Assembly (NCBI GenBank): GCA_964564895.1
Contig: CAZMCB010000001.1
Span: 19,689-83,688, forward strand
DNA length: 64,000 nucleotides
Direction: 5' to 3'
Source of the DNA: an uncultured Pseudomonadales bacterium
Lineage (GTDB): Bacteria; Patescibacteriota; Microgenomatia; UBA1400; MFAQ01
Positions 21,619 through 42,117 of this stretch are shown one piece after another (position 1 is the stretch's first letter; each line of letters begins with the position of its first letter). Both the position numbers and the translations under genes were made by a program. Under the pieces are notes generated by a model, which made no database searches, had not been told where the DNA came from, and worked only from the letters and a program-made list of their open reading frames with translations.

Positions 21619-22287
21619 CTAATTATAGTACCATCCAGGGATTTGTAATAGTATTTTTATTGCATCAAAAAGAGAGACTCCCTTGTATTTATCAATATAA
21701 ATTGTATCTACCTCTATCTCTTTATAATCGAGATGGTTTTTTCCTACCCTTGTGGCAATTTCTGTTTCAACTCCATATCGTGTAGAACGCCACTTTATTT
21801 GTTTGTAGACAGACTTATTGAATCCTAGATAGCCACAAAGAAATTCTTTTCTATTGATATCAAATAGAAACCTCAAAATGCTTTTGGCAATAATATTCCC
21901 CCATTTTCTGACAAAAGGCATTTCACCATTTAGCTTTCTATAACCAAAAACTAAATCGTGGTTAATTAATTCTTTCTCGAAATCTCTGAGGTGTTTAGGG
22001 TTATGTTGGCCGTCGGCGTCGATAAAAATTACAGCATCAGCTTTTAGTTTCCATGCCATAGACACTCCGGTTCGCATTGCAGCACCCTTACCGAGATTTA
22101 TTGCATGAGACAAAAGGAATACTCTTTTGTTGTTTTTAAATTTTTTGTTTAATACTTTCCAAGTATCATCTGTCGAACCATCGTCAATAACTACTAAATC
22201 ATTATTTGTATTCTTTAGAACTCTATTGATAGTATCAACTGCTCGAAAATTTTCATTGAAAGCCGGAATGATAATTATTGTTTTCAC
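21619..22287 (-). CDS. GT2 glycosyltransferase, polyprenol-phosphate sugar synthase-like (DPM1/GtrB-like, short)
   Basis: IIIIPAFNENFRAV...VVIDDGSTDDT and FIDADGQH are GT-A DPM1-like motifs. A 4-nt overlap links it to the upstream GT-C gene. Confidence 0.7.
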   Translation of the reverse strand: MKTIIIIPAFNENFRAVDTINRVLKNTNNDLVVIDDGSTDDTWKVLNKKFKNNKRVFLLSHAINLGKGAAMRTGVSMAWKLKADAVIFIDADGQHNPKHLRDFEKELINHDLVFGYRKLNGEMPFVRKWGNIIAKSILRFLFDINRKEFLCGYLGFNKSVYKQIKWRSTRYGVETEIATRVGKNHLDYKEIEVDTIYIDKYKGVSLFDAIKILLQIPGWYYN

Positions 22288-25995: not shown

Positions 25996-27039
25996 CTAGA
26001 CTAACTTTTTAATAATTGGAATTTTTTTAATGAGATAGATACTTAAAAAGCTAAAGAACACACAAAGAACAATTAGTCCACCTAACCACAAAATGTAATT
26101 TGAAGAAAAAGCAGAAATAAAGAAATTTGTATTTTTGAAATATAGTAACCAAAGAGGATGAATTAAATAAACTCCTAATGATAATTCTGAGAGAGATGCA
26201 ATTTTTTTGAATGATGAAAGTCGCTTATTACTTAAATTGATAACAATATAGAAGAGAAAATTTGCAGCAAGAATTACAGGGACTGAAAAATGCTTTACAA
26301 AAACCAGAACCATTTCTTGGCTCGTGTAAAGAAAAAATGTTTTTCTTGTTATCAATACGCCGAGAAATAGTAACAGAGATGATAATGCGATCAATAATAC
26401 TGGGTGTTTAGGTGGTGATTTTTTTCCTATCCAGTATCCTGCTATGTAATAGCCTAGATATGGGAGAAACCAGTTAAAAATATTGCTAACCTGAGGAAAT
26501 CCAAAAAATGAATAAAGAATTAGATAAGCTGCAGAACAAAGAAAAAGAAAGGGAACAATAATATTTAGATTCTTGTTTAATACGTATTTTTTAATTAATG
26601 GAGTAAAGAGATAAAGACCAAACATAACATTAATAAAATACAGATGATACTCTGTTCCCGAGCGCCAAAGATTGTCGATAAAATCAAGAGGATTTGCAAG
26701 AGACGCCATCCCTTTATTTAGTACGTAATAGACTAGACACCAAAAAATGTAAGGAATTAAAATTCTACTCAGCCTTCGACGATAAAATTCTTTTGGATTA
26801 TTAGATAAATCTGAGTTTAATAAAAAATATCCACTAATCATGACAAAGACAGGAGTCCCCCATTTAAGCATCCAGTTTAGGCCATTGGTAATTAACCACC
26901 AATGATAGCCAACCAAATCAAGCTTGTAATAGATTAGAGAGGTAACATGCATGACAACAACTGCGGTCGCGGCAATAACCCTAATAAGATCGGCTGAAAT
27001 CTTTCTTTCTTTTTGGCTTGTTTGTATCTGTGTAGTCAA
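25996..27039 (-). CDS. Acyltransferase family 3 (OatA/OafA-like) membrane O-acyltransferase
   Basis: KISADLIRVIAATAVVVMHVTS matches the acyltransferase_3 N-terminal RxxxxDxLRxxA...H motif. About 10 TM helices. Confidence 0.65.
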   Translation of the reverse strand: MTTQIQTSQKERKISADLIRVIAATAVVVMHVTSLIYYKLDLVGYHWWLITNGLNWMLKWGTPVFVMISGYFLLNSDLSNNPKEFYRRRLSRILIPYIFWCLVYYVLNKGMASLANPLDFIDNLWRSGTEYHLYFINVMFGLYLFTPLIKKYVLNKNLNIIVPFLFLCSAAYLILYSFFGFPQVSNIFNWFLPYLGYYIAGYWIGKKSPPKHPVLLIALSSLLLFLGVLITRKTFFLYTSQEMVLVFVKHFSVPVILAANFLFYIVINLSNKRLSSFKKIASLSELSLGVYLIHPLWLLYFKNTNFFISAFSSNYILWLGGLIVLCVFFSFLSIYLIKKIPIIKKLV

Positions 27040-27048
27040 TTTTGTCTT

Positions 27049-28185
27049 TTAGCCAATAAAGTAACCCCTTGTAAAGAAGCCGATGGAAAGTATGGAAAGA
27101 ATGATGCAAAAGGCGTAGTAAATATAACTGACAAAAGGATGGCGCTTATCTAGCCAAGAAGCTAAGAAAATAAACATAGGAAAGAGAACTACAGCGTATC
27201 TAGGAAGACTTGAGAGAGTACCGGTGAGAGTAGGTAGAATGTAAGAGAAGGAACAAAAAATCCAGTACGAGGGACGGATTTTTTTGATTGAGAAGATGAG
27301 AAGCATAAGAATCAATAATCCAACAAGGAATTCTAGAATGACAGAGAAATAGGTGGAGCTCCAAGGGTCGACTGTAAAAATCATCTTGATGTATCGGTAA
27401 AAAACTTGATAGAGAAGAATCAGCTTGTCTGTAGTTCGGCCCGGAACGTAGTGCTGATAATTAATGAAGAAGAAGGCGTCCCCTGTCATGCGGAACTGGT
27501 AGTACATATAGGAGAGCAAGCCGATGGGAGGAGTAGCAAGCCAGAGAATCTTGGGCTTAAGGAAGGTCTTTATCCCCTCTCCATAAGTGTTGAAATACTC
27601 GATGATGAGAGCAAACCAGATGAAGATGCCTGTGACTCTTGTGGCCGATAGGATTGCGGCTGCGATACAGGCTAAGGGGAAATTCTTTTTGCGAGCGAAG
27701 TAAAAAGATAGAACAGCAAGAAGTAAAAAGGTAGACTCGTTGTAAACACTGCCGAAATAAAATGATGTAGGAAAAATGAGGATGAGAAATAGCGTGTATT
27801 TAGCAATCTTTGCCGAGTAATCAAGCCTTATCAGCTTGTACAAGAAAAAGAGGGCGAAAATAAATGAGAGACTGGATACAATGAGGCCGGAGACGGTAAA
27901 ATTTCCGATCAATGGATTGATTTGCTTTATGAGCCAAGGGTAAACTGGGAAAAAAGCGTAGACCTTGTCTGTTTTGGTTAGAGTGCCGTAGTCGTATTTG
28001 GCAATGCTTTGATAGTGAAGGCCGTCGAAATTGGACCACATGGTAAGCAGATCACCAGTGGACGCTTTTGGAGTGAGATTGGTGAAAGTAGTGCTGGGTT
28101 TGAGAACGAACATGGCGAGAACAGCAACAAGAAAAATGAGAGTGCGCCAGATGAGGAATTTTTTGAATATGTTTCCGAGAGACAT
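27049..28185 (-). CDS. GT-C-like membrane protein (DUF2029/PIG-V mannosyltransferase-like)
   Basis: WSNFDGLHYQSIAKYDYG...AFFPVYP resembles the WDGxxYxxIAxxGY...AFFPLYP block of PIG-V/DUF2029 proteins. Polytopic. Confidence 0.5.
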   Translation of the reverse strand: MSLGNIFKKFLIWRTLIFLVAVLAMFVLKPSTTFTNLTPKASTGDLLTMWSNFDGLHYQSIAKYDYGTLTKTDKVYAFFPVYPWLIKQINPLIGNFTVSGLIVSSLSFIFALFFLYKLIRLDYSAKIAKYTLFLILIFPTSFYFGSVYNESTFLLLAVLSFYFARKKNFPLACIAAAILSATRVTGIFIWFALIIEYFNTYGEGIKTFLKPKILWLATPPIGLLSYMYYQFRMTGDAFFFINYQHYVPGRTTDKLILLYQVFYRYIKMIFTVDPWSSTYFSVILEFLVGLLILMLLIFSIKKIRPSYWIFCSFSYILPTLTGTLSSLPRYAVVLFPMFIFLASWLDKRHPFVSYIYYAFCIILSILSIGFFTRGYFIG

Positions 28186-28267
28186 GGTTAAGATTGATTA
28201 TATCGCTTGGAGATGTTTTGGGTGGAGAGGATTTGATTTCGGGTATTGTTTGGTGTTAAATGAATGT

Positions 28268-28606
28268 ATGGGAAAATATATTGTTCGTAGATACGAAAAT
28301 CTAAACGGTAAGGATCTTATTAAGGAATTCTTTTTAAAATGCTCTACGGCTCAACAAGCAAAAATATCTCGTCAAATATTTCATCTTGAGTTTTACGGTA
28401 TCTCGAGACTAAATCCAACTCTTAAAAAAGTTGCTGGAACAAATTTATGGGAAATGAGAAGCCTTGGAAAGGATAATATTAGAATATTCTGTGCTCAGGA
28501 TAATAATTCAATAATTTTATTGCACATAATTATTAAGAAATCACAAAAAACAAGTCAAAAAGATTTATCAATTGCAATTAAAAGATATAGTGATTTATTT
28601 GATTAA
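28268..28606 (+). CDS. Type II toxin, HigB/RelE-superfamily (phage Gp49-like, PF05973-like)
   Basis: The 112-aa version starts at MGKYIVRRYEN. WEMRSLGKDNIRIFCAQDNNSIILLHIIIKKSQKTSQKDLSIAIKRYSDL matches the Gp49/HigB-like pattern (..E.R...IRI.......I.LLH...KKSQKT....I..A..R). The ORF-track frame extends upstream to 28031 and overlaps the neighbouring gene. Confidence 0.7.
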   Translation: MGKYIVRRYENLNGKDLIKEFFLKCSTAQQAKISRQIFHLEFYGISRLNPTLKKVAGTNLWEMRSLGKDNIRIFCAQDNNSIILLHIIIKKSQKTSQKDLSIAIKRYSDLFD

Positions 28607-28633
28607 ATATATCTTTTATGATATATTAACTTT

Positions 28634-28924
28634 ATGAGAAAACTAAAATTATTTTCTGACCTATTTAAAGAGATGTTGCAAGATCCCGAATTCAAAAAGG
28701 AGTGGGAGAAGCTAGAACCTCAGTATCAACTTGAACACGAAATTATTAAGGCGAGAATTGAAAGCAAATTGACTCAAGAGGAATTGGCTAAAAAAATGGA
28801 TACTACTCAAGCAGCAATTTCCCGAATTGAGTCTGGCTCAGTAAGCCCTTCAATTAATACCGTCAATAGAATCGCGATGGCTTTCGGGAAGAAATTGGAA
28901 ATTAGATTTGTGTCGCCTGATTAA
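28634..28924 (+). CDS. XRE-family HTH antitoxin (HigA-like)
   Basis: LTQEELAKKMDTTQAAISRIESGSVSPSINTVNRIAMAFGKKLEI is a classic HTH_3/XRE domain. It lies 27 nt downstream of the toxin, in toxin-then-antitoxin (HigBA) order. Confidence 0.75.
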   Translation: MRKLKLFSDLFKEMLQDPEFKKEWEKLEPQYQLEHEIIKARIESKLTQEELAKKMDTTQAAISRIESGSVSPSINTVNRIAMAFGKKLEIRFVSPD

Positions 28925-29927
28925 CTTTGCGATAGACATCTAGCGTGGCTTTGGCTGTTTTGGACCATGTGAACGTATCGGCTTTGGCCTTGGCTATTTC
29001 GATTTGATTTTGTTTTTCTTTGGGGGTGAGTGAGAGAGCTTTTTTGATAGCTTTTTCCATAGACAGTAGCTTTCTAGGATTGAAAGTGATGGCTCCTTCG
29101 TGATAGATCTCAGGGAGACTGCTGGTACTGGAGCTTGCGACCAAGCAACCTGCAGTCATGGCTTCAAGAAGTGGTAAACCAAAACCTTCATAAAGTGATG
29201 GTTGGACATAAAGAGTGCTTAATCTGTAGAGAGCACTGAGATCTTCATTTGATACAAAGCCTGGCAGTATTAGATGCTTGTAGACCTTGAGGCGAACCAT
29301 ATCGATAAGCTCGGGGTGAACTGGTTCTTTGATTTCTTGGAGCATTCCTTTGCCTACAATCACGAGAGGAATATCTAGCCTATCTGTGACTTCGGCGAGG
29401 GAGGGAAGATTTTTATTAGGATTTGGGCCGCCAGCAACGGTGAGAATGAATTTGTTGGGGAGATTGAGTCTTTTTTTGACCTCTTTTAATTTTTCTTCGG
29501 AGATGTCTTTTTTATAAATCTGGTCGATGGCGAGTGGGGTGACAAAAATCTTTTCCGAGGGGACTCTGAAGATTTTTTCGATATCGTTTTTGGAGCTAAC
29601 TGAGTCGGTGATGATGGCAGAAACTGACTGGAGTGAGAGCCATTGTCTGGCTAGGTTTATCGTACCCTTGATGCCTTTGGGGTAGCGACTGGATAGAACT
29701 AGAGGAGTGAGATCGTGGATGGTAACAATGGTGGGCTTTTCTTTTTTGAGCGGAAGAGTGGCGTAGAAAAGATCGAAGAAAGGATAGTGAATGATATCGG
29801 GATTTTTGTCTGTAAGAGTCACATCTGACAATTTCTCAAGTGCCTTGGCTAGATTGTCGGCATAGAAGCCAACTCCCCTACCTTTAGAGTGATCACCGCT
29901 GTTTAGAAAAACTTTGATTTTATTCAT
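28902..29927 (-). CDS. GT4 family glycosyltransferase
   Basis: YEGFGLPLLEAMTAGCLVASSSTSSLPE is an EX7E motif. Its 3' end overlaps the convergent antitoxin gene by 23 nt. Confidence 0.8.
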   Translation of the reverse strand: MNKIKVFLNSGDHSKGRGVGFYADNLAKALEKLSDVTLTDKNPDIIHYPFFDLFYATLPLKKEKPTIVTIHDLTPLVLSSRYPKGIKGTINLARQWLSLQSVSAIITDSVSSKNDIEKIFRVPSEKIFVTPLAIDQIYKKDISEEKLKEVKKRLNLPNKFILTVAGGPNPNKNLPSLAEVTDRLDIPLVIVGKGMLQEIKEPVHPELIDMVRLKVYKHLILPGFVSNEDLSALYRLSTLYVQPSLYEGFGLPLLEAMTAGCLVASSSTSSLPEIYHEGAITFNPRKLLSMEKAIKKALSLTPKEKQNQIEIAKAKADTFTWSKTAKATLDVYRKVNQATQI

Positions 29928-29965
29928 TAGTTATATGGGAATTATAGTATAAAATTGAGTTTAGA

Positions 29966-31120
29966 TTGAAAAAAGTAATATTGATTTGTTTTTTGATCTT
30001 CGGCGTTTTTCTTAGTGTTTGTTTTGCTGCTTTTTCTTATATTTTTATTGACGAACCTTTGCTTATCATGCTGGGGCAGAGTAAACCAGTGATTTTGGAT
30101 TTGGTTTCCTCACTTCACAAATATGTGTCTCTTGATTTGGCCAATATGATTGGCTTGGCTATCTTAATATTACTTTGTGTAATTGCCTTGATTTTAGTCA
30201 TGTCAAAAAAGGCGGTGAGCATGAGACTGGTCTACTTATCTATCTTTATCCCTGCGATTCTAGTATTTGCCTACCCTATCTTAAGCCGCGATATTTTTAG
30301 CTATATGTATTATGCCAAGATGGTTTTGATACAACATCAAAATCCTTACCTTGTGGCGCCAATGGCGAACTGGGGTGTGGATATGTGGGTTGGATTTCTT
30401 CATAATGTGGAACGAGTTTATGTATACGGACCAGTGGCACTTCTTATAAATCTTGTACCTATGGCTTTGATCGGAGCGGAGCGATTTTTGGTAAATATGT
30501 ATGTACTAAAAGCTGTTAGCTTGGCGTTTTTCTTGTTTGGAGGTTGGTTGTTTTTACGAATTAGTAAAAACCGTAACTTGGTATTGGTGCTGTGGTTACT
30601 CAACCCTTACATAATCAATGAATTTTTGATTAATGGTCACAATGATCTTTTTATGGTTGTTTTCTTTTGGCTGGCAGTATATCTAAAACAAAAGTCAAAA
30701 ACAGTTCTTTCTCTACTGGCTTGGGCTTTGTCTGTGGCTACCAAGTATGTTTCGGGAGTGCTACTACCGGTATTTTTTATGCCAAAAAAACTGCAGAGAC
30801 TGTTTGGACTGATGGCAATTGTAGTAATCGGAGGATATTTTACCTATCACGGATACTTGCCTTGGTACTACTCTTGGATGTACTTCCTCTTGCCTTACCT
30901 CAAGCTTAATAAGATGCAGATTATCTCGCTTCTTTACTTACAGCTTGCCTTAGTACTGACTTACTCTGGATTTTTACAAAACGGACTTTGGGGGACATAC
31001 TCTAGTAGCCAGATAATTGTAGCTATCGTGAGATCAGTCAAAATATTTACACCTTTATTTGTAATCGCTACAGTTTATCCCTTCTTTATGGAAAGACTCA
31101 AACTTCGTCGACCTTCTTAA
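29966..31120 (+). CDS. Polytopic membrane protein, DUF2029/GT87-like putative glycosyltransferase
   Basis: SRDIFSYMYYAKMVLIQHQNPYLVAP resembles the DUF2029 D..Y..A......G.NPY block. About 11 TM helices. Confidence 0.45.
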   Translation: MKKVILICFLIFGVFLSVCFAAFSYIFIDEPLLIMLGQSKPVILDLVSSLHKYVSLDLANMIGLAILILLCVIALILVMSKKAVSMRLVYLSIFIPAILVFAYPILSRDIFSYMYYAKMVLIQHQNPYLVAPMANWGVDMWVGFLHNVERVYVYGPVALLINLVPMALIGAERFLVNMYVLKAVSLAFFLFGGWLFLRISKNRNLVLVLWLLNPYIINEFLINGHNDLFMVVFFWLAVYLKQKSKTVLSLLAWALSVATKYVSGVLLPVFFMPKKLQRLFGLMAIVVIGGYFTYHGYLPWYYSWMYFLLPYLKLNKMQIISLLYLQLALVLTYSGFLQNGLWGTYSSSQIIVAIVRSVKIFTPLFVIATVYPFFMERLKLRRPS

Positions 31121-31970
31121 GTTCCCAGAGCTTCATGTAAGAGAAAGCGTGATGAAGACCAGAGTAAAGTGAGAAAACAAAGCCTGGGAATCCATCCAAG
31201 AAACCACGATGGCGGAAATAGAGAGTGATGAAGGTGCCTGCTGGTTTGAAAAATAGAAAACTAATGGTGTTTAACAAATTAACTTTGAGTCCTTGCTCGT
31301 TGTAGAATCTGGCCTGCAGACTAGAGTAGCGATTTTCTCTAAGTAAGTATCTGCTGAAGTCTGGGGTGGCGTAGTGATCGAGATCTGTTTTGAGCCAGCC
31401 TACCACTCCATCTACTTTCATCTGCTCATGAACATCTTTGGCTGGAAGAGTGGCTTTGCCTTTTTGAAAAAGCCTAATGACTGGGTCTGGGTACTGTCCT
31501 GTGTTTTTGAGGTATCGGGTGAGAAAAAAGTTTTTTCTGGGAAGCCAGTAAGCCGAGGCTGGTTTTTCAAGTTTCTTGGGTTCTGGGAAAATCTTGACTA
31601 TTTTGTTTACTTTTCTTCTAAGGGGACTGATCCAATTGTCGTAGCCTGTGTACTCTCCTTTTAAGAGACTGATTATTTCATTTTTCATCTGCTTAGTAAT
31701 TCTTTCGTCGGCGTCTAGCTGGAGAATCCAGTCTGATTTGGCTTTGGCGATGGCTTTGTTTTTGGTGATGTGGAAAATTTGCTCGTGGGGCTCACTGAAC
31801 ACCTTTGCTCCTAAACCCTCGGCTAACCCTTTGGTTTTGTCGGTACTTTGCTCGTCTACTATGATGATTTCGTCTACCCAGCCTTTGACGGATTTGAGAC
31901 AGTCAACAATGTTTGACTCTTCGTTGAAAGTGGCTAAAACAACTGAGATGGTTTGAGTTTTATTTTTCAT
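31098..31970 (-). CDS. GT2 family glycosyltransferase
   Basis: ISVVLATFNEESNIVDCLKSV...IIIVDEQSTDKT and LDADE are GT-A motifs. Confidence 0.75.
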   Translation of the reverse strand: MKNKTQTISVVLATFNEESNIVDCLKSVKGWVDEIIIVDEQSTDKTKGLAEGLGAKVFSEPHEQIFHITKNKAIAKAKSDWILQLDADERITKQMKNEIISLLKGEYTGYDNWISPLRRKVNKIVKIFPEPKKLEKPASAYWLPRKNFFLTRYLKNTGQYPDPVIRLFQKGKATLPAKDVHEQMKVDGVVGWLKTDLDHYATPDFSRYLLRENRYSSLQARFYNEQGLKVNLLNTISFLFFKPAGTFITLYFRHRGFLDGFPGFVFSLYSGLHHAFSYMKLWELKKVDEV

Positions 31971-33598
31971 TTGGTTGAGGAAAACTTGAACATAATATCT
32001 CCTGAAGGTGATTTTATCGTGTTTATTAGTTTTGTATCATCGACTTTTTCTTCGGCAGAGATGAGAAGAGCATTTGGAATTTTCATATCTTCCTCGTAGT
32101 TTATGGCTCTGAATTCATATTTACCCAACTTTCTGCCTGTAGAAAAACCGTATTTATCTGGATCGGAATATTTGATGTCTTCTTGAAGCCTTTCTGGAGA
32201 ATATTTAGTGAAAAAGGCAATTAGGATGTATGGCTGATCATAACGATCGGAGATAATTATTTTGTCGTACTTATCGTAGTTCTCTTTTGTGTATTCGGCA
32301 ATTTGATCGAAGCCATATTGCCAAGCAAAAGGAAGCCTCTCTGGATACTCAACATAGTACATATTGAGGTAGCGGGTGAAGTTGTATGAACAAATAGCGA
32401 CAACAAGAACAGTAACAAGGATAAATAGTTTGGGAAGATTCTTTTTTATAAATTTGAAAAATTCAAACAAACCTACTGCTGTAATTATGCTTAGTGGAAT
32501 CGCCATGTTTTGGGCTCTTAGGGCGTGAGGAGACTGATAAGTAATGGAGGCGGCAAGAGGAGCAATCAAGAGCCAATAAAGTAAAACAAATTTACCTTTT
32601 GAATCAAACCTTAGAATATTTAAGATTCCAAGAAAGAAAAATGGTAATAGAGAAAGAAGCGATTGACCCATCTCGGGAACTTTGCTTCTGGCTATTGCAT
32701 CACCATTGGTGAAGAGAAAATCCGGAGAAAAATGACTCAGATAATTGTGAGTAAAGCGCATGCCATAAGTGAAGTATTTGTTATGGAATATATTTGTCCA
32801 ACCTCCTGCACCTTTGTGTTCATTTCGGAAATTTTCAGCTTCCCATACTGGGCCATTATCAGAGAAGATAGATACACCTGAGAATCGAGACTGACCCGCA
32901 GTTGAAAACATTTGAAACACAATAGGAAGTGCAAGAACAATAGATAATACAAGAGCAGAAAGAGTAATTTTGAGATTTGTTTTTGAAAAAAGCCTCTTTA
33001 CTTTATCAAAGTAGATGATGGCAAAGACAATAAAAAGAACTGGGGAGATAATTCTGGCTGAGTGATAAGTGTACAGAGATAGAACTGTGGAAATTCCAAA
33101 GACAAAAAGATATTTTGGTTTTTCAAATGATTTGAGAAAGAAAATGGTGGATAAGAGAATGAAGAAAGTGGCGACATTTACTTCCCAACCTCCTCGAGAA
33201 AACTGTAGATGCCAAGGAGAAGTGGCGAGGACAAGGGCTGCAATCTCTGGTAAATATTTTCTTTCAGAAAATAAACGTTTGGTGAGTAAAAATATTAAGA
33301 AAACACTAGCAATGCCAAGAAGAGCACTGGGGAGACGAACTGACCAGACAGAAAGACCCATCACTTTGACAAAGGGAAGGACGATATAAAAATATAGTGG
33401 TGGTTTGTAATCATCAAATGATCTAAAGACCAAAGGCCAAGCGACTCCATGCTCGTCTTTGCCTGTTTCAATTAAAGACCAAGCGTTGTAACCTATGGCT
33501 GCTTCGTCGGCATTGAGACCAGCTGGATGAATGTCAAGAAATGCAAGACGCAAAATGGCGGCGAGAATTAGAATGGCAATAATTAGTTTATTTTTCAT
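31967..33598 (-). CDS. ArnT/PMT-family GT-C glycosyltransferase (paralog 1 of 3)
   Basis: GLNADEAAIGYNAWSLIETGKDEHG...PLVFRSFDDYKPPLYFY matches the ArnT/PMT first-loop signature. 543 aa, polytopic with a C-terminal domain. Confidence 0.7.
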   Translation of the reverse strand: MKNKLIIAILILAAILRLAFLDIHPAGLNADEAAIGYNAWSLIETGKDEHGVAWPLVFRSFDDYKPPLYFYIVLPFVKVMGLSVWSVRLPSALLGIASVFLIFLLTKRLFSERKYLPEIAALVLATSPWHLQFSRGGWEVNVATFFILLSTIFFLKSFEKPKYLFVFGISTVLSLYTYHSARIISPVLFIVFAIIYFDKVKRLFSKTNLKITLSALVLSIVLALPIVFQMFSTAGQSRFSGVSIFSDNGPVWEAENFRNEHKGAGGWTNIFHNKYFTYGMRFTHNYLSHFSPDFLFTNGDAIARSKVPEMGQSLLSLLPFFFLGILNILRFDSKGKFVLLYWLLIAPLAASITYQSPHALRAQNMAIPLSIITAVGLFEFFKFIKKNLPKLFILVTVLVVAICSYNFTRYLNMYYVEYPERLPFAWQYGFDQIAEYTKENYDKYDKIIISDRYDQPYILIAFFTKYSPERLQEDIKYSDPDKYGFSTGRKLGKYEFRAINYEEDMKIPNALLISAEEKVDDTKLINTIKSPSGDIMFKFSSTK

Positions 33599-35198
33599 CT
33601 GTTTTGGTTTTTACTATTCTGTAGGCAACGAACCCGTCGGGGAATTTAATTTCTTCAAATCTTTCTATGGCAGGATTATTTTTGTCGAACTCGTTTTTTA
33701 TGTTTCCGATGGTGCCAATAAAAGTAGTATTTTGCTGGTTAGATATTTCGCTGTCACTAAACTGATGAAACTCGATATTATCTAGCTTGGCAACATGCCC
33801 GACGTCAAAGCCCCCACTAATAAAGGAGTTTTGTCTTTGATAGGAGGCGGGATCGTAACGAGAATAAAAAAGGTAGAAAATGTATGGCTGACCATTAACG
33901 TCGGTCATAACTACAATATTTGATTTGTGATCATTGATAAAGCGAACCGCCTCCTTGTAGCCGAACTGGAACTCATGGGCATAAGTATAGTTTGCATGAA
34001 CTAAGAGCAAGTCCACCATATATATAGTAGTGACTAAGGTGAGGAGAGAAATAAGAATAAATAGTGACTTTAATTTAGTAAAGGCGAAAAAGAGTCCTGA
34101 ACCGATGATAATTGATAAGGGAATAACCATAAATAAAGTTCTTACTGTGGAGTACTCCGAAAGAGTGAGGGCTCCAGGGATCGGAGAGAGTAATAAAAGC
34201 CCGATGATAAGAACACTGATTCTTTTGTTGGCGAATCTCATAAGGAATACAAGGCCCAGAACTAGAGCAATAAAATCAAATGGTTGAAGAACTCCAAGAT
34301 TTGGAAAATGTCCCCTCTCATTGACTGTCATACCTTCGTAGAATAGAAGTTTAGGAGACAAGTGATTTAGGTAACGACCAGCAATAAGACGAGTCATTAA
34401 CTGAGGTTTGTTTTCTATGATGCTCGTTGATATTTCTGGTTCGTAGGAGAAAATACTAAGTCGTTTTAACCTGTTCCCCGCATCACCAAAAGACGAGGAA
34501 ATAAAAATTGAAAGTACAGCTGCCACTGCAATAACTGTAATAGTGATATTAATTGGTTTTTTGAAGTACTGCCCTAGCTTGCTGAAGAAACTTTCTCGAA
34601 ATACGATAATGATGAAAAGAATCAGAAGAGGGGTGAGCATCTTGGCTGCTTGGTAAGTGATGAGGGTTAGAACCGCCAAAATTATTGAGTAATTTAGGAA
34701 TTTTCCGGACTTTATATATCGAACTAAAAAGTAAATTGAAAAAAGGAGCATGGTGGTAAAAACATTGGATTCCCAAGCACCTCGGGACAGATGAATATGA
34801 AGTGGCATGATGGCAAGGGCGAGGGCTGCGAACTGAGCTAAAAGAGATTTCTTCTTCTCATCTTCAAACAGCTCTCTTGTTAAAAGAAAAACACCAAAGA
34901 TAGCTAGTATTCCAAATAGGACACTTGGTAGACGAACAGCAAATTCGGAAAGACCAAAAATGGCAATAGAGGGAATAGCTAAATAAACATATAACCCTGG
35001 CTTGTAATCGCCGAAGCTTTTGAAAACAATGGGCAGAAACTTACCAAACTCGTCTTTGCCGGTTTTGAGAACTGAGAAGGCATTGTAACCTAGGGCGGCC
35101 TCATCCCAAGTGAGTGCATTGGGAATTGATCCAACCTCGTAAAGTCTAAGGAAGGCTCCAAGAACTAGGGCAAGAATAAGGATGATGTACTTTTTCAT
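33588..35198 (-). CDS. ArnT/PMT-family GT-C glycosyltransferase (paralog 2 of 3)
   Basis: LTWDEAALGYNAFSVLKTGKDEFGKFLPIVFKSFGDYKPGLYVY is the same motif block as its neighbours. Confidence 0.7.
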   Translation of the reverse strand: MKKYIILILALVLGAFLRLYEVGSIPNALTWDEAALGYNAFSVLKTGKDEFGKFLPIVFKSFGDYKPGLYVYLAIPSIAIFGLSEFAVRLPSVLFGILAIFGVFLLTRELFEDEKKKSLLAQFAALALAIMPLHIHLSRGAWESNVFTTMLLFSIYFLVRYIKSGKFLNYSIILAVLTLITYQAAKMLTPLLILFIIIVFRESFFSKLGQYFKKPINITITVIAVAAVLSIFISSSFGDAGNRLKRLSIFSYEPEISTSIIENKPQLMTRLIAGRYLNHLSPKLLFYEGMTVNERGHFPNLGVLQPFDFIALVLGLVFLMRFANKRISVLIIGLLLLSPIPGALTLSEYSTVRTLFMVIPLSIIIGSGLFFAFTKLKSLFILISLLTLVTTIYMVDLLLVHANYTYAHEFQFGYKEAVRFINDHKSNIVVMTDVNGQPYIFYLFYSRYDPASYQRQNSFISGGFDVGHVAKLDNIEFHQFSDSEISNQQNTTFIGTIGNIKNEFDKNNPAIERFEEIKFPDGFVAYRIVKTKTDEK

Positions 35199-36868
35199 GG
35201 TAACGATACAATTATAAAGGCTGGAGTACCATCAAGAAAATTAATCGTTTTTAGAATTTCTGCGTTTTCCGGGACGTGTTTTGGTGCGGTGATGAGAAGA
35301 CTATTTTGGGTACTGACTACTTCTTTGCTTTCGAGAGTGAGACTGTCAATTGATGAATCCGGAATATCTTTCTCGTTTACAAAATAATACTTTCCAATTC
35401 TATCCACCCAGTACCACTCAGATTGATAAAACCTAGTGGTAATATTTTTGTCTTGAAGGACCTCAGGACTTATCCTATTTGAAAATAAGTAAAAGATGTG
35501 TGGCTCACCGTATTTTTTGGTGATGAAAATTTTATCGTAGCTATCTTCGTTTTCTTTGGCGAAATTAATGGCTTCTTGTGTGCCGAATTGCCAAGATTCT
35601 GAGTATTTAATTGGATACTCGAAAAAATATTTATTAAGGTAAGTACCAAAGCAAACTAAGGTGAGTAAAACCAAGACACTTGAAGCAGTTTTTGATTTTT
35701 GCGAAATTTTCCAGAGTGCTAGGGTCGAAATGATTACGATTACGGGAATCATAATAATAGGACGGATTGCTTGGGGCGGATCTGCAGTAAGAGACGCGGC
35801 AAGCGGAGAAAAAATTAACCAAGCAAGAAGAAATTGTGATGTTTTTTCTTTCCTGAGATTAATAAGAATCAGCAGTGTTCCAAAATACAAAAGCAACATA
35901 ATAGGAAGTGTGATCATGTTTGTGTTAGGAATGGCAAACTGCCATTGGGGACCATCGCTTTGAGTAAAGAAGGGAGGTAAAAGGTAGCTAAAGTAGTTGG
36001 CGGCTAGAGCGGAAACAAAATAGACAGGTCTGTTGTGAACAAGCGTGGGTAATGGAGCCGGAAGAGTACTTTCTGTTCGTTTTTGACCAATTTGGAAAAC
36101 AGCGTTTTCGGACAAAATCTTGACTTGGTCGTACCTTGCGGTACCTTCTCCTCCGATGGTTTGGAAAACAACTAAAAACACAAAAAGAGAAAATATGATC
36201 GTAGAAACTATTGAAATGAGATTTATTTTTGGTTTTATTTTGAAAATTATGATTGCGGCTAAGAGCATAGGAAGAACAAACACTCTGGCAGAGTTGTATG
36301 TATGCATCGATAGACCAAGAAGAAGAGCTGAAATAATGAGAGAGACCGGGTTTTGTTTTGATCTTAATAAAAAGTAAAAACCATAAATTATTAGTGTGAG
36401 AGCTAGATTGGCTTCAAATGCTGGCCGTGACATGAAAAAATGCCAAGGAAGAATGGACAACAAAAAGGACGAGAGTAAGGCTAGGCTTATCTGCGTTCCA
36501 AAGAGAGTGATTTTCTTGTCTGGGAAAAGTTCTTTTACCAGTAGATATATTCCATACAAAGCAAAAAGACCGGCAATCATAGAAACAAAACGAACTGCAA
36601 AAGCGTTGAGACCAAAGATAGCGATTGGAAGAATTGATGAGTAGATATATACAGGAAGTTTGTAATCTCCAAATGCCCTGAAAATTAGAGGAAAACTTTT
36701 GCCCCATTCGTCTTTGCCTGTAGTGAGAATAGAGTAAGCATTGTATCCATGGCTGACTTCATCCCAGTTTAGACTGGGAGGATTTCCAGTAAAGTTAACT
36801 AGCCTTACTACAATAGAAGCTATAAAAACTAGAGCGAAAACAATTTTAACTATGTGTTTCTTGAACAT
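35195..36868 (-). CDS. ArnT/PMT-family GT-C glycosyltransferase (paralog 3 of 3)
   Basis: LNWDEVSHGYNAYSILTTGKDEWGKSFPLIFRAFGDYKLPVYIY is the same motif block. Confidence 0.7.
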   Translation of the reverse strand: MFKKHIVKIVFALVFIASIVVRLVNFTGNPPSLNWDEVSHGYNAYSILTTGKDEWGKSFPLIFRAFGDYKLPVYIYSSILPIAIFGLNAFAVRFVSMIAGLFALYGIYLLVKELFPDKKITLFGTQISLALLSSFLLSILPWHFFMSRPAFEANLALTLIIYGFYFLLRSKQNPVSLIISALLLGLSMHTYNSARVFVLPMLLAAIIIFKIKPKINLISIVSTIIFSLFVFLVVFQTIGGEGTARYDQVKILSENAVFQIGQKRTESTLPAPLPTLVHNRPVYFVSALAANYFSYLLPPFFTQSDGPQWQFAIPNTNMITLPIMLLLYFGTLLILINLRKEKTSQFLLAWLIFSPLAASLTADPPQAIRPIIMIPVIVIISTLALWKISQKSKTASSVLVLLTLVCFGTYLNKYFFEYPIKYSESWQFGTQEAINFAKENEDSYDKIFITKKYGEPHIFYLFSNRISPEVLQDKNITTRFYQSEWYWVDRIGKYYFVNEKDIPDSSIDSLTLESKEVVSTQNSLLITAPKHVPENAEILKTINFLDGTPAFIIVSLP

Positions 36869-38119
36869 TTATTGTATTATTTTGCCTCTATTCTTGGAAG
36901 AGAGTAGGTCATAAATTAGATAAATACTGGTAGCGGCAAAGAGACTTCTGATGGCACTCTTGAAGAAAAAAATATTTGTTTTGGCTGCGATCAGTTTATC
37001 AATGCCTTGGAATTTGTTTAGTTCTTGATTGAGTACCGCAAACATTCCAACTGATAATGAGTTATCAAATGTAAGAATAATAATTAGATAACAGCCAAGA
37101 AGAGTTAGATCTAGCCATAGATTTCTCCAGTTGTTGGAAATCAGCTCAATGATGATAAAAGGAGAAACCCAGAGGAACCATTGAGGATGAAAATGAGTAA
37201 CTGAAAAAAGTATTAGGAAATATCCGAGATAATATTTCCAAAGTTTTTGAATTAAATTTTTGTTTCTTAGAGCATGAAAAACTAACAGAACAAAGCCGAG
37301 GATATACGGGTAAAGCCCTTCACCCCCCGAGACCATCCATTGCATATAAAACATTTTTTGGGACTGAGGGCTAAAGACCATATTCCTGAACGCGGGAGAG
37401 GTAATGTAGGGTGCAATAGTGATAATGTATGGAACTAGGCCGAAAAATAGTATTTTTGCTCTATTCCAAAATCCTTTGGCGGCTAGAACTACAAAGGGTA
37501 ATAAGAAAATTGGATATTGTTTGTAGGCAGTACCTATACCAATCATTACAGCCGCCCAACCAAGCTTGTTTTTCTTGGCAAACACCAGCGAAAGAACAGT
37601 AAATATTGCAGGGATAATATCAAAGACCCCCATGGAGAAAGTGGCATAGAAAGTGACTGGATTGAAAAGCCAGAGGAGAAAAGCCCATTTCTTTTGTTTT
37701 TCTTTGTCAAATAGTGAGGCAAGTACAAAAGCCATGGCAATATCGATAAAGAGATATGGAAGCTTGAGAACAATAAGATACAGCGATAGATTTGGTTGAA
37801 AAATAGAACCACCATTCATGAGATCTGTAAAAAAGCTCTCGGGAATTATGGCACTAGCTCCCTTAAGAAAAGTCCCTAAAGTGAAATATGTAAGAGGAGG
37901 ATATATAAAAATATCTTCGACCTTAAAGTGCTGTACAAGTGGATGATCGGAGGGGAGATTGGCTAGATGATCATAAATGTTGGTAACATTTTTGAATCCG
38001 AAAAAATAACTAGACAGAGACTGACCAACAATATCGGCCTGAAAAGTAGATCCAGCGATAAACAAGCGCATGGCGACTGCAAGAATCAATAATAAAATTA
38101 ACTTTTTTGAAAGCTTCAT
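36869..38119 (-). CDS. Polytopic membrane protein, DUF2029/GT87-like
   Basis: 416 aa with about 11 TM helices. It directly abuts the upstream ArnT paralog with no spacer. Confidence 0.45.
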   Translation of the reverse strand: MKLSKKLILLLILAVAMRLFIAGSTFQADIVGQSLSSYFFGFKNVTNIYDHLANLPSDHPLVQHFKVEDIFIYPPLTYFTLGTFLKGASAIIPESFFTDLMNGGSIFQPNLSLYLIVLKLPYLFIDIAMAFVLASLFDKEKQKKWAFLLWLFNPVTFYATFSMGVFDIIPAIFTVLSLVFAKKNKLGWAAVMIGIGTAYKQYPIFLLPFVVLAAKGFWNRAKILFFGLVPYIITIAPYITSPAFRNMVFSPQSQKMFYMQWMVSGGEGLYPYILGFVLLVFHALRNKNLIQKLWKYYLGYFLILFSVTHFHPQWFLWVSPFIIIELISNNWRNLWLDLTLLGCYLIIILTFDNSLSVGMFAVLNQELNKFQGIDKLIAAKTNIFFFKSAIRSLFAATSIYLIYDLLSSKNRGKIIQ

Positions 38120-38928
38120 CTTTTTATTTTTTTAATTAGTTTTTGCCATTTTTGACCGACAAAGAGAACTGCATTTAGGACGCTTGATCCAAACTTGCCA
38201 TGGTAAATCTCGGCTGACTTAGCTAAGGGACTGGAAAGATGTGAGCTAAAACTGCCACTAGCACCATGAGCATGCATAACAACGGCTTTGGGATAGAAGA
38301 AGACTGGAAGATTGAATTTTTTTAGACGGCGACAGTACTCGATATCTTCGTAGTAAAGGAAAAATCGCTCATCAAGACCGCCAACTTGATTAAAGGTGGT
38401 TCGAGGAATAAGAAAGGCAGCCATAACGGCGATGTCGACCTTAGTAGTTTTGTTTCCTGGGTAATATTTGTTGAAACAGCGTTTGCATCCGAAAAAATAA
38501 TGTTTGATAGCGTTACCTATCGTTGGGAACTTGTAGCAGGATGGCTGTATCTTGCCATCATTGTAGAGAAGCTTCGGGGCAACAGCTCCAAGGACAGGAT
38601 GTGCCTCTGCAAATTCAAATAATAATTTGAGAGCGTTGCCTTTTATTCTTGTATCAGGATTAATGACCAAAATATGCTTACCTTTGGAAGCTCTAAACCC
38701 TTTGTTGATGGCTTTGGAAAAGCCAACATTCTCAGTATTGATTAGTACTGTTGGCTTGAGGGAGTGGTTTCTAGCAATCTGCGCCCCTTTATCCATTGGG
38801 TAGTTGTCGACGACAATAATTTCTTTGTTTAGACCATCTTTGGATTTTTTGATGGAGTCAAGGAAGGGACCGATGGTGTCTTCGGAGCGATAGCCTACAG
38901 TAATAATCGAGAGATCAATTTCCTTCAT
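38116..38928 (-). CDS. GT2 family glycosyltransferase
   Basis: LSIITVGYRSEDTIGPFLDSI...IIVVDNYPMD is a GT-A N-terminus. Confidence 0.75.
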   Translation of the reverse strand: MKEIDLSIITVGYRSEDTIGPFLDSIKKSKDGLNKEIIVVDNYPMDKGAQIARNHSLKPTVLINTENVGFSKAINKGFRASKGKHILVINPDTRIKGNALKLLFEFAEAHPVLGAVAPKLLYNDGKIQPSCYKFPTIGNAIKHYFFGCKRCFNKYYPGNKTTKVDIAVMAAFLIPRTTFNQVGGLDERFFLYYEDIEYCRRLKKFNLPVFFYPKAVVMHAHGASGSFSSHLSSPLAKSAEIYHGKFGSSVLNAVLFVGQKWQKLIKKIKR

Positions 38929-39796
38929 ATTTTTTGTTTACTAAAGACAGAACTTCGCTGTCTTTTTTTGTGAAATTTGTTTTTTGATGATTGGAAAATT
39001 TTCTAAAAAAAGCGGCGAGAATCACCTTTATGTAGCCGGGGTGTTTTAATGCATGTGCAAATAGATATTTTCTATGTGAGGAGACAAGATCTGGGTCAGT
39101 GATATTTATCCAGTTGAAGAGAAGTTCGTTTCTTTGTTTGATTAGACTGAGATAGCTAGGTTTTATTTTTTTGGCTGTGGATTCATGCTCGTGATACACA
39201 ACTGAGTCTTTGTCCCAGATGATTTTGTAGCCTGATTTCCAAGCTCGGTAACCAATATCTATGTCTTCCCAGTAAAAAGGAGCGTAAACCTCATTTAAAC
39301 CGCCAAGTTTGTCCCAAATACTTCTTTTGAAAATTGCACTTCCACCAGACGCCCAAGCGGAGAAGTAAGGATGATCTTTGTCTTCACCTCTTGTGAATTG
39401 AATCTTGCCATCGTGAGATACCAAAGGCCAAGAAGATTCATTCTCATTGAAAGACACAGCAAATACTTTCTCATCTTCAAAAAAGTGAAGAGTATTTTTT
39501 AGATAGCCTTTTTCTGGTCTAACGTCGTTGTTTAGAAGGACAATGTATTCTGAGTTGGACTTGGCTACTCCTTGATTGACTGGTTTGGTGAAACCAAGAT
39601 TGGTTTTGTTTTTGACGATTATTACTTCTGGATATTCTTTTTTGAGCCATTCAATCGTACCGTCTGTACTGCCATTGTCGATAATGATTACCTTATGTAG
39701 ATAATCTGAGTTATTGAATACCTGAGGTAAGTGCTTCTCTAGTAAGTACTTGCCGTTGAAGCTCGGGATTACAATATCGATTGTAGGTTTTGCCAT
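38915..39796 (-). CDS. GT2 family glycosyltransferase
   Basis: IDIVIPSFNGKYLLEKHL...IIIDNGSTDGT and LLNNDV are GT-A motifs. Confidence 0.75.
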   Translation of the reverse strand: MAKPTIDIVIPSFNGKYLLEKHLPQVFNNSDYLHKVIIIDNGSTDGTIEWLKKEYPEVIIVKNKTNLGFTKPVNQGVAKSNSEYIVLLNNDVRPEKGYLKNTLHFFEDEKVFAVSFNENESSWPLVSHDGKIQFTRGEDKDHPYFSAWASGGSAIFKRSIWDKLGGLNEVYAPFYWEDIDIGYRAWKSGYKIIWDKDSVVYHEHESTAKKIKPSYLSLIKQRNELLFNWINITDPDLVSSHRKYLFAHALKHPGYIKVILAAFFRKFSNHQKTNFTKKDSEVLSLVNKKYEGN

Positions 39797-39837
39797 CTGT
39801 TAAGAGTATACCAGCCACGGTGATAGAATTATAAATA

Positions 39838-42117
39838 GTGATTAGAAAGTTAATAAAATACTGGCCTTTTGTATTTATTGGTTTGGTTTGTTTGGTTTAT
39901 TTTTGGGAAGTATTTTTGAAGGGAATGGTACCTTTCCCCGGCGATATCTTGGTCGGAGCCTATTTCCCCTGGCTAGAAAGTAAATGGGGCACGGCAACCG
40001 GCGTTCCATTTAAGGCAAATCCATCTACTCCTGACGTTTATTCTACGTTTTATCTGTGGAAAAGTTTGGCCGCCGAAAGCATTAGAAATCTCCAATGGCC
40101 ACTTTGGAACCCCTACTCATATTCTGGTTATCCCCTATTGGCTAACTTTCATTCTGGTGCTTTGTATCTTGGAAATTTATTGATGGTAGTGCTTGGAGAT
40201 ATTAATGGATGGTCGGCCTTGATTATTTTTGGAGTAGTAGGGTCTTTTACATCCATGTATCTGATGCTTAGGCAGTTAAAGATGACGACACTTGCGGCTT
40301 TGCTTGGTGGCTTTGCTTATGCCTTTTCTGGATTCTCAATTAGCTGGTCTCAGTTTATAAACGCTCCTCAGGCAATGGTTTGGCTACCTTTGTTAATAAT
40401 GTGTATTGATAAATATTTTGAGGACAATAAATTAAAACACTTATTCTGGCTGCCATTTTTGTTTTTCTTGTTTATAACTGCAGGACATTTCCAGATTACT
40501 GTCTACGGCTCGGCGATTTTATTGTTGTTTGTATTATGGAAAGCGGCTTCGAAAAAAAATATCAGCAAGACTTTTATATTTATTCCGATATTACTGATTA
40601 CTATTGGATTTTCAGCTATGCAGATTCTTCCAACAATGGAAATGGCTAAACAAGGAATCCGCTCGAATGATCGTGTTTTGGAAGACCGAAATTATGGACT
40701 TTCCCCAATGCGAAATTTAATAAACCTTTTTGCACCTGACTTTTTTGGAAACCCAGTTAAAGCAAATTTTTGGGGATTTTTTAATTATCATGAAACTATC
40801 TTTTATGCTGGACTTCTGACGACTTTAGTAATGATCTGGGCTTTGTTTCTTTGGAAAAAGATTTCTGCAACGACAAAGTTTTTTTGGATTATCGCTATTG
40901 TGGCACTGCTGTTTGGTTTTGATACCCCATTTGGTAGAGCGATTTATTTATGGAAAGTTCCGGGGTTATCTACGAGTGATGCGGGAAGAATAGCTTCTGT
41001 GTTTGTACTGGGGAGTAGCGTGGTCCTTGCTGGAGTAGTTGACAATTTGGAAAAATGCTCCAAAAAAGCAATTGTTTCTTTCTTGGTATTGAGCGCAGTA
41101 ATTTTTGGAAGTTTATTTATACTAGCGGACAAGAGTCAGGTGTTGTGGGGCAAGTTCTCGACTGGAATCTTGACTGAGGAAATAAAAAGAATGGTGGCAT
41201 TGAGAAACTTGGTTTTCCCCGCCGGTCTTTTTGCTCTGATCATTGGCTCGGTAGTACTTTTGAGAAATAGAAGGGTACTTTTTGTAAGTAGTTTGATTGC
41301 GATCATGATTTTGGATATGTTTAGATTTGGATGGAAATACACTCCGTTTGTTCCAAAACTTTATGTGTATCCTGATACCCCAATGACACTTTTCCTTAAA
41401 GAAAAAAATTCCGAGGAAATAATGAGAATAGATCGTGAAAAAGCTGAGATAATGCCAAATGCGACGTGGATGGCATATAGACTAATGAGCCCATCGGGAT
41501 ATGACCCAATGGCACTTCGAGATTATGTTTCGGAGTTTAATGGAATTTTGAATCACAAACCAAATTCGAGTCTTTCTCGATACTCAGAAATTGAACAGTA
41601 TGACGCGGAGGCTTTGGGAAAATTCAATGTGAAGTACTTACTGGCAGTGAAAAAAGAAAAGGATGAAGGATCTTTGGAAAAATATATCAATCCATTAATT
41701 GATCTGAAAAAATGGAAGAGTGTATTTGAGTCTAGCTCTTCTGCTGTACTTGAAAATACTGAGTATAAGGAAAGAGCAAGAATTGTGGATGCTAATGGTG
41801 AAGAGGCTATCGGAAAGGCTACGATAAAAGAGTATCAAAATGAAAGAGTCGTAATTGACTTTAGTAACGAGACTGGAGAAAAACTGCTTCTTTCGGATAC
41901 TTATTACTCTGGATGGAAGGCTACTATTAATGGTAGACAGACAAAAATTGGGAATGAGATAAAACCATTTAGATCTGTTGATATTAGAGGAATAAGTGAG
42001 GGTGAAGTATTGTTTGAATATAAACCAGATTCGTTTAGAATTGGATTATGGATAAGTATCTTAAGTGTTATTACTTGGATAGGTTTGTTTGTATTTAAAA
42101 AAAGAGATGAAAAATAA
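39838..42117 (+). CDS. YfhO-family polytopic membrane protein (putative GT-C glycosyltransferase)
   Basis: GMVPFPGDILVGAYFPW...LQWPLWNPYSYSGYPLLANF resembles the YfhO N-terminal pattern (G..PFGGD...QYYP....LWNP..G.P). 759 aa. Confidence 0.55.
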   Translation: MIRKLIKYWPFVFIGLVCLVYFWEVFLKGMVPFPGDILVGAYFPWLESKWGTATGVPFKANPSTPDVYSTFYLWKSLAAESIRNLQWPLWNPYSYSGYPLLANFHSGALYLGNLLMVVLGDINGWSALIIFGVVGSFTSMYLMLRQLKMTTLAALLGGFAYAFSGFSISWSQFINAPQAMVWLPLLIMCIDKYFEDNKLKHLFWLPFLFFLFITAGHFQITVYGSAILLLFVLWKAASKKNISKTFIFIPILLITIGFSAMQILPTMEMAKQGIRSNDRVLEDRNYGLSPMRNLINLFAPDFFGNPVKANFWGFFNYHETIFYAGLLTTLVMIWALFLWKKISATTKFFWIIAIVALLFGFDTPFGRAIYLWKVPGLSTSDAGRIASVFVLGSSVVLAGVVDNLEKCSKKAIVSFLVLSAVIFGSLFILADKSQVLWGKFSTGILTEEIKRMVALRNLVFPAGLFALIIGSVVLLRNRRVLFVSSLIAIMILDMFRFGWKYTPFVPKLYVYPDTPMTLFLKEKNSEEIMRIDREKAEIMPNATWMAYRLMSPSGYDPMALRDYVSEFNGILNHKPNSSLSRYSEIEQYDAEALGKFNVKYLLAVKKEKDEGSLEKYINPLIDLKKWKSVFESSSSAVLENTEYKERARIVDANGEEAIGKATIKEYQNERVVIDFSNETGEKLLLSDTYYSGWKATINGRQTKIGNEIKPFRSVDIRGISEGEVLFEYKPDSFRIGLWISILSVITWIGLFVFKKRDEK

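Follow-up and report, generated by a model that had tools for sequence, protein, structure and literature searches.

ArnT (CAZy GT83) is the undecaprenyl-phosphate-L-Ara4N:lipid A transferase, with structures 5EZM and 5F15. The PMT enzymes (GT39) and the PMT_2-type TMTC1-4 form ancient paralog families with different substrate ranges. Adjacent, anciently duplicated GT-C genes under selection are present in mycobacteria (EmbC/A/B, MptA/B/C, and Aft) and in Rhizobium, in which RgtA and RgtB are GalA transferases acting on Kdo (PMC4402001). Extracytoplasmic glycosylation following the three-component logic of a GT2 donor synthase, a flippase, and a GT-C (PMC11127046) has been described for the GtrA/GtrB/Gtr*, CsbB/GtcA/YfhO, and GT136 systems (PMC11127046, PMC8035078). 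Motifs of the PMT clan are an acidic pair in EL1, a basic residue in the second EL1 helix where ArnT has K85, and an Arg just before TM10; the ArnT E84/K85 element contacts the carrier phosphate (PMC7801869).

The window, which is the whole 64,000-nucleotide stretch of DNA that was analyzed, contains three adjacent genes, here named paralogs A, B, and C, with likenesses to each of these systems. As in ArnT, a predicted EL1 acidic pair directly after TM1 is followed by (D/E)-x-K-P at what may be the ArnT E84/K85 position, the C-terminal domain is soluble and predicted to be extracytoplasmic, and a polyprenyl-monophosphate-sugar donor would be expected. However, identity to ArnT is 12-13%, neither sequence nor profile searches matched it significantly, ArnT has 13 TM helices compared to approximately 11 predicted here, the invariant GYNA and (K)DE elements of EL1 are additional to those of ArnT, and the surroundings hold no recognizable arn pathway genes. 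PMT and TMTC1-4 share with the paralogs the PMT_2 membership, the acidic EL1 motif, probably the Arg before TM10, and an ancient paralogy that presumably goes with different substrate ranges, but the paralogs have neither a MIR domain nor TPR repeats, are unmatched by PF02366, and, compared to PMT, lie in a polysaccharide-island context with no evident protein acceptor. The Emb, Mpt, Aft, and Rgt arrays are similar in their tandem, anciently duplicated genes under selection, in their lipid-phosphate-sugar donors (probable for A, B, and C), and in the co-occurrence of GT87/MptA-B-like GT-Cs with cytoplasmic GT4 and GT2 enzymes. In contrast, no orthology to them was detectable, and the Emb proteins are approximately 1,050-1,100 aa with carbohydrate-binding domains, whereas the paralogs are approximately 540 aa with a small alpha/beta domain. 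DPMS/GtrB/ArnC-like GT2s, Wzx-type and DUF2304 proteins, and a YfhO homolog in the window recall the three-component systems; however, the triple has no paired GtrB-type synthase or GtrA-type flippase, its fixed partner is a soluble GmaR/SunS-like GT2, and each array has three to six GT-Cs rather than one.

Gene organization of the locus

The minus strand carries exactly three adjacent ORFs, with the lengths of 557, 536, and 543 aa that the original prediction had given (Table 1). An NCBI protein (P0241) is 100% identical to paralog A. Read directly, the TAA of the upstream GT87-like gene abuts the ATG of A with a 0-nt gap, A and B overlap by 4 nt (ATGA), B and C overlap by 11 nt, and C and the downstream GT2 share an ATGA overlap. 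These overlaps had been taken to imply co-translation; the overlaps themselves stand, but co-transcription or translational coupling are the right terms, and the arrangement would indicate a single transcript with possible translational coupling. A promoter and terminator scan of positions 26000-41000 gave no more sites than shuffled sequence and is therefore uninformative on operon boundaries. No tRNA was found in a scan of the window.

Table 1. Features of the paralog array and its neighbors in the window
Feature	Position	Strand	Size	Remarks
GT2	38915-39796	minus		upstream, same tightly packed run (36869-39796)
GT2	38116-38928	minus		upstream, same tightly packed run
GT87-like GT-C membrane protein	36869-38119	minus		stop abuts ATG of A
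Paralog A	35195-36868	minus	557 aa	first gene of triple; GT-C/PMT_2-type membrane glycosyltransferase
Paralog B	33588-35198	minus	536 aa	GT-C/PMT_2-type glycosyltransferase
Paralog C	31967-33598	minus	543 aa	last of triple; GT-C/PMT_2-type glycosyltransferase
Soluble GT2	31098-31970	minus	290 aa	Pfam Glycos_transf_2; ATGA overlap with C
GT4	28902-29927	minus		Pfam; conserved downstream partner
GT-C-like membrane protein	27049-28185	minus	378 aa	conserved downstream partner
Candidate polyprenyl-phosphate-sugar synthase, GT2	21619-22287	minus	222 aa

Homology among the paralogs

Pairwise BLASTP aligned the paralogs over their full length, with 33% identity for B and C (E 7e-72), 31% for A and C (E 9e-70), and 28% for A and B (E 1e-54). 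The motif that they have in common thus reflects homology and not chance. This is the pairwise comparison that had been proposed for the locus, and it rules out near-identical copies; an assembly artefact or a recent duplication was likewise rejected, given the 28-33% identity and the separate ortholog clades. The block DE..GYNA..TG(K)DE..(G/D)DYK occurs in the first loop of all three proteins and reads NWDEVSHGYNAYSILTTGKDEWGKSFPLIFRAFGDYKLPVY in EL1 of A. The longer N-terminal consensus written originally fits A and B exactly but C only approximately (LNADEAAIGYNAWSLIETGKDEHGVAWPLVFRSFDDYKPPLY), with LNADE for xxWDE, S-L-I for S(I/V)L, and FDDYK for FGDYK. The whole block was missing from the four further PMT_2/GT-C-like proteins of the window included in the comparison, which had a bare D-E or acidic pair after TM1, or nothing, in its place; it is therefore specific to the A/B/C subfamily.

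Family and fold assignment

All three paralogs scored above the gathering threshold of Pfam PMT_2 (PF13231; 26.1 bits), at 35.1 bits for A, 45.2 for B, and 43.5 for C, and 47 of 53 aligned relatives matched the same family. The structural model of B has a GT-C fold, with ArnT, ALG12, AglB/STT3, and Pmt4 as top matches. The predicted placement among ArnT/PMT proteins therefore holds at the level of the superfamily. Orthology to ArnT (GT83) or PMT (GT39) themselves was rejected, as there was no significant PF02366, ArnT, or PMT sequence match: PF02366, which covers CAZy GT39 and GT83, was unmatched in A, B, and C at E <= 0.01, and was found in 1 of 53 relatives at E <= 0.001. Searches of the PDB by sequence (phmmer with single sequences, and the family profile) gave no significant match; the only PDB sequence touched by the profile was ArnT, at a non-significant E of 8.8. 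Alignment to E. coli ArnT by hhalign had a probability of 0.5% (E 0.12), and around the motifs its register was shifted by one or two residues. NCBIfam TIGR03663 (Agl23) was matched nearly full-length by C (48.4 bits, E 7e-13) and B (31.6 bits, E 8.5e-8), both below its cut-off of 126.25 bits, and was not matched by A. Agl23, a distant relative in the superfamily, has been reported as a lipid-linked-sugar flippase and not a transferase, an observation that runs against a transferase function.

In PMT enzymes, a MIR domain occupies the large luminal loop between TM7 and TM8; a domain scan matched no MIR or other domain in the paralogs. The EL4 region of the B model comprises only about 70 residues, part helical and part low-confidence, and the C-terminal domain weakly resembles the appended domains of the glycan-acting GT-Cs ALG12, AftD, and AftA. 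The family amounts to approximately 5,000 clusters (50% identity, E <= 1e-30). A search of the literature on this family and on GT-C, ArnT, or PMT enzymes of CPR, Patescibacteria, or Microgenomates found nothing relevant.

Topology and conserved residues

Hydropathy, the model helices, and the positive-inside rule predict that paralog B has 11 TM helices, with the N-terminus inside and an extracytoplasmic alpha/beta C-terminal domain at about residues 410-536. Among 150 orthologs of A, B, and C, 45 residues were at least 95% conserved, of which 37 fall in predicted extracytoplasmic segments and 0 in cytoplasmic loops. The universal residues (B numbering) are D32, E33, D49, E50, D64, K66, E143, N145, Y182, R243, and R353. 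The pair D32-E33, at least 95% conserved in these orthologs and invariant in A, B, and C, is placed in EL1 by hydropathy and the model helices; an acidic motif (DxD, DD, or DE) in EL1 after TM1 and a polytopic membrane core with a GT-C fold are both features of the GT-C_A type. K66 and R353, also universal, lie at the topological places expected from the clan motifs (PMC7801869). K66-P67 aligned with the KP of ArnT in the non-significant match (E 8.8), and all ArnT correspondences, which come from such alignments and from topological position, are provisional. All universal motif residues are kept in all three clades and dN/dS is low, making pseudo-enzyme copies unlikely.

A further 33 positions were conserved inside each clade but different between clades, and 29 of these map to the C-terminal domain or to loops predicted to be extracytoplasmic, where they flank universal motif residues. 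The suggestion that A, B, and C use different sugars or acceptors is plausible and would be consistent with these positions.

Orthologs, selection, and array size

The paralogs form separate ortholog clades, each with one member per related genome and with gene order unchanged. Identity was 48-78% between orthologs compared to 28-33% between paralogs; the C clade was the most conserved, with orthologs 52-91% identical. The dN/dS values against the nearest relative were 0.05-0.08 for each copy (0.050 for A against locus L001; 0.079 for C), which shows purifying selection. Since each paralog has its own ortholog clade, the duplications are old, and the original view of old and maintained copies is strengthened by these values.

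Judged from its relatives, the window belongs to an uncultured, ultra-small CPR bacterium of the Microgenomates group. Across 55 related loci, the array comprises 3-6 copies and closes with B, C, GT2, and then usually GT4. The usual number in Microgenomates is 5-6 copies, such that the triple is a reduced form. The array, the fixed GT2, and the usual GT4 are kept across Collier-, Woese-, Shapiro-, Ames-, and Blackburnbacteria.

Neighboring genes

All 42 of the 42 related loci had a homolog of the soluble GT2, which in most of them immediately follows the C ortholog. No hydrophobic or TM segment was predicted in this protein, and its N-terminal half resembles GmaR and SunS, which are protein/peptide glycosyltransferases, in the PDB. 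The GT2 linked to the array thus looks soluble and GmaR/SunS-like and not like a donor synthase of the GtrB/ArnC type, and no GtrA-type flippase adjoins it, which also runs counter to the reading that we prefer below. Downstream of the array, homologs of the GT4 were found in 39 of 42 loci and of the 378-aa GT-C-like protein in 35 of 42; in the window, a toxin-antitoxin-like pair on the plus strand has been inserted between these two genes. NCBIfam and PDB searches with the conserved GT4 and unknown membrane proteins returned generic or no assignments. The upstream order GT2, GT2, GT87-like is the same in L001, L002, and L004, and homologs of these genes were found upstream in 9-14 of 42 loci.

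The 222-aa GT2 has full-length similarity to PpgS (NF058614; E 6e-20), below the cut-off, and its best PDB matches were Pyrococcus DPMS (5mlz), GtrB, and ArnC. This enzyme could supply a lipid-linked donor, although its link to the triple is inferred.

Proposed function and alternatives

We favor, with a probability of roughly 60%, the reading that all three paralogs are active GT-C transferases that use polyprenyl-phosphate-sugar donors, differ in acceptor or linkage, are encoded in one operon, and belong to a Microgenomates-specific PMT_2 subfamily within the known GT-C enzyme class. Working from the outer side of the membrane, they most likely decorate a glycan or protein of the cell surface. 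The same operon would include GT2 and GT4 enzymes of the cytoplasm along with further GT-C proteins. Each paralog would span the cytoplasmic membrane, expose its conserved loops on the outside, and bind a flipped polyprenyl-phosphate-sugar, the phosphate of which may be contacted by K66 of EL1 (the ArnT K85 position), R243, and R353. D32-E33 of EL1, possibly together with D49-E50, D64, and E143, may activate the acceptor or bind metal, and one sugar would then be moved to an extracytoplasmic acceptor. A, B, and C, like the 1-3 additional copies in relatives, would have kept the catalytic and donor-phosphate residues while the flanking positions and the C-terminal domain diverged. Most probably, the copies would differ in the position or linkage at which they add sugars to one growing cell-surface glycoconjugate, or in their donor. 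The parallel would be EmbA/B/C, MptA/B/C, and RgtA/B/C, whose members work on a single polymer either in succession or side by side.

The paralogs could instead be protein O-glycosyltransferases, each acting on Ser/Thr in its own set of surface or secreted proteins (S-layer, pilins, lipoproteins). In this they would be comparable to fungal Pmt1/2/4 or to animal TMTC1-4 and TMEM260, and they may form hetero-oligomers as do Pmt1-Pmt2. The Pfam family carries the PMT name, precomputed annotations also assign PF02366 (PMT) to a few orthologs, the invariant GT2 partner downstream is similar to GmaR and SunS, and translationally coupled paralogs would give the equal stoichiometry expected of a heteromer. 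We nevertheless regard this as rather unlikely, because PF02366 was almost absent from the family in our own searches, the long loop carries no MIR domain and there is no TPR domain, the C-terminal domain weakly resembles those of enzymes that act on glycans, and the 64-kb context is polysaccharide-like, with its Wzx flippases, its enzymes of sugar modification, and its numerous further GT-Cs.

A role as flippases or scramblases of lipid-linked sugars, or as flippase-associated proteins, would follow the precedent of the archaeal PMT_2-like Agl23, which when purified translocated M5GN2-PP-lipid in liposomes (PMC11182771). The weak, near full-length similarity of C and B to TIGR03663 (flippase activity-associated protein Agl23) points in this direction, as does the absence of a GtrA-type flippase adjoining the triple. 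However, those scores (48 and 32 bits) are far from the cut-off of 126 and A is unmatched, a single predicted face bears all of the strictly conserved acidic and basic residues, as a catalytic site would require, and the clade-specific residues that surround this site in 3-6 paralogs speak more for acceptor specificity than for flipping; we consider this role highly improbable. We give even less credence to true ArnT-type (GT83) enzymes modifying lipid A or a lipid anchor, even though relatives are named "4-amino-4-deoxy-L-arabinose transferase-like" by JGI and ArnT was the joint-best structural match (best by TM-score) and the sole PDB sequence touched by the family profile. That profile match was non-significant, the hhalign probability was 0.5%, and structural identity was 12-13%. 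The scanned ORFs of the window gave no match to ArnA, ArnB, ArnD, ArnE, or ArnF at the thresholds used, and similarity to ArnC was only partial and in generic GT2s. Microgenomates are not known to have lipid A/LPS.

The probable glycan island around the array

By its gene content, the 64-kb region around the array resembles a polysaccharide island. It contains at least 15 GT-C-like genes, candidate polyprenyl-phosphate-sugar synthases, Wzx-type flippases, a DUF2304 small membrane protein, a YfhO homolog, sugar-modifying enzymes, and a generic DegT-family aminotransferase. A less likely possibility is that the Microgenomates-wide array of 3-6 or more ancient paralogs and the at least 12 other GT-C-like proteins of the island form an extracytoplasmic assembly line for a lineage-specific envelope glycopolymer or lipoglycan, in which the translationally coupled paralogs might act as a heteromeric complex. 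If so, this would be a functional counterpart of mycobacterial LM/LAM/arabinogalactan synthesis, and its product would be a major part of the envelope of ultra-small CPR bacteria that has so far gone undescribed.

The transferase reading preferred above would make A, B, and C a real but fairly ordinary addition to a known enzyme class, with nothing known being overturned. The ortholog clades offer a clean natural set for mapping GT-C specificity determinants, and the array is a well-defined target for the surface glycoconjugate of episymbiotic or ultra-small bacteria. CPR/Patescibacteria have very small genomes, approximately 1 Mb in Microgenomates, and a cell envelope that is almost uncharacterized. 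The complete genomes of relatives were 0.8-1.1 Mb, and the 64-kb glycan-synthesis region amounts to roughly 6-7% of a genome of approximately 1 Mb.

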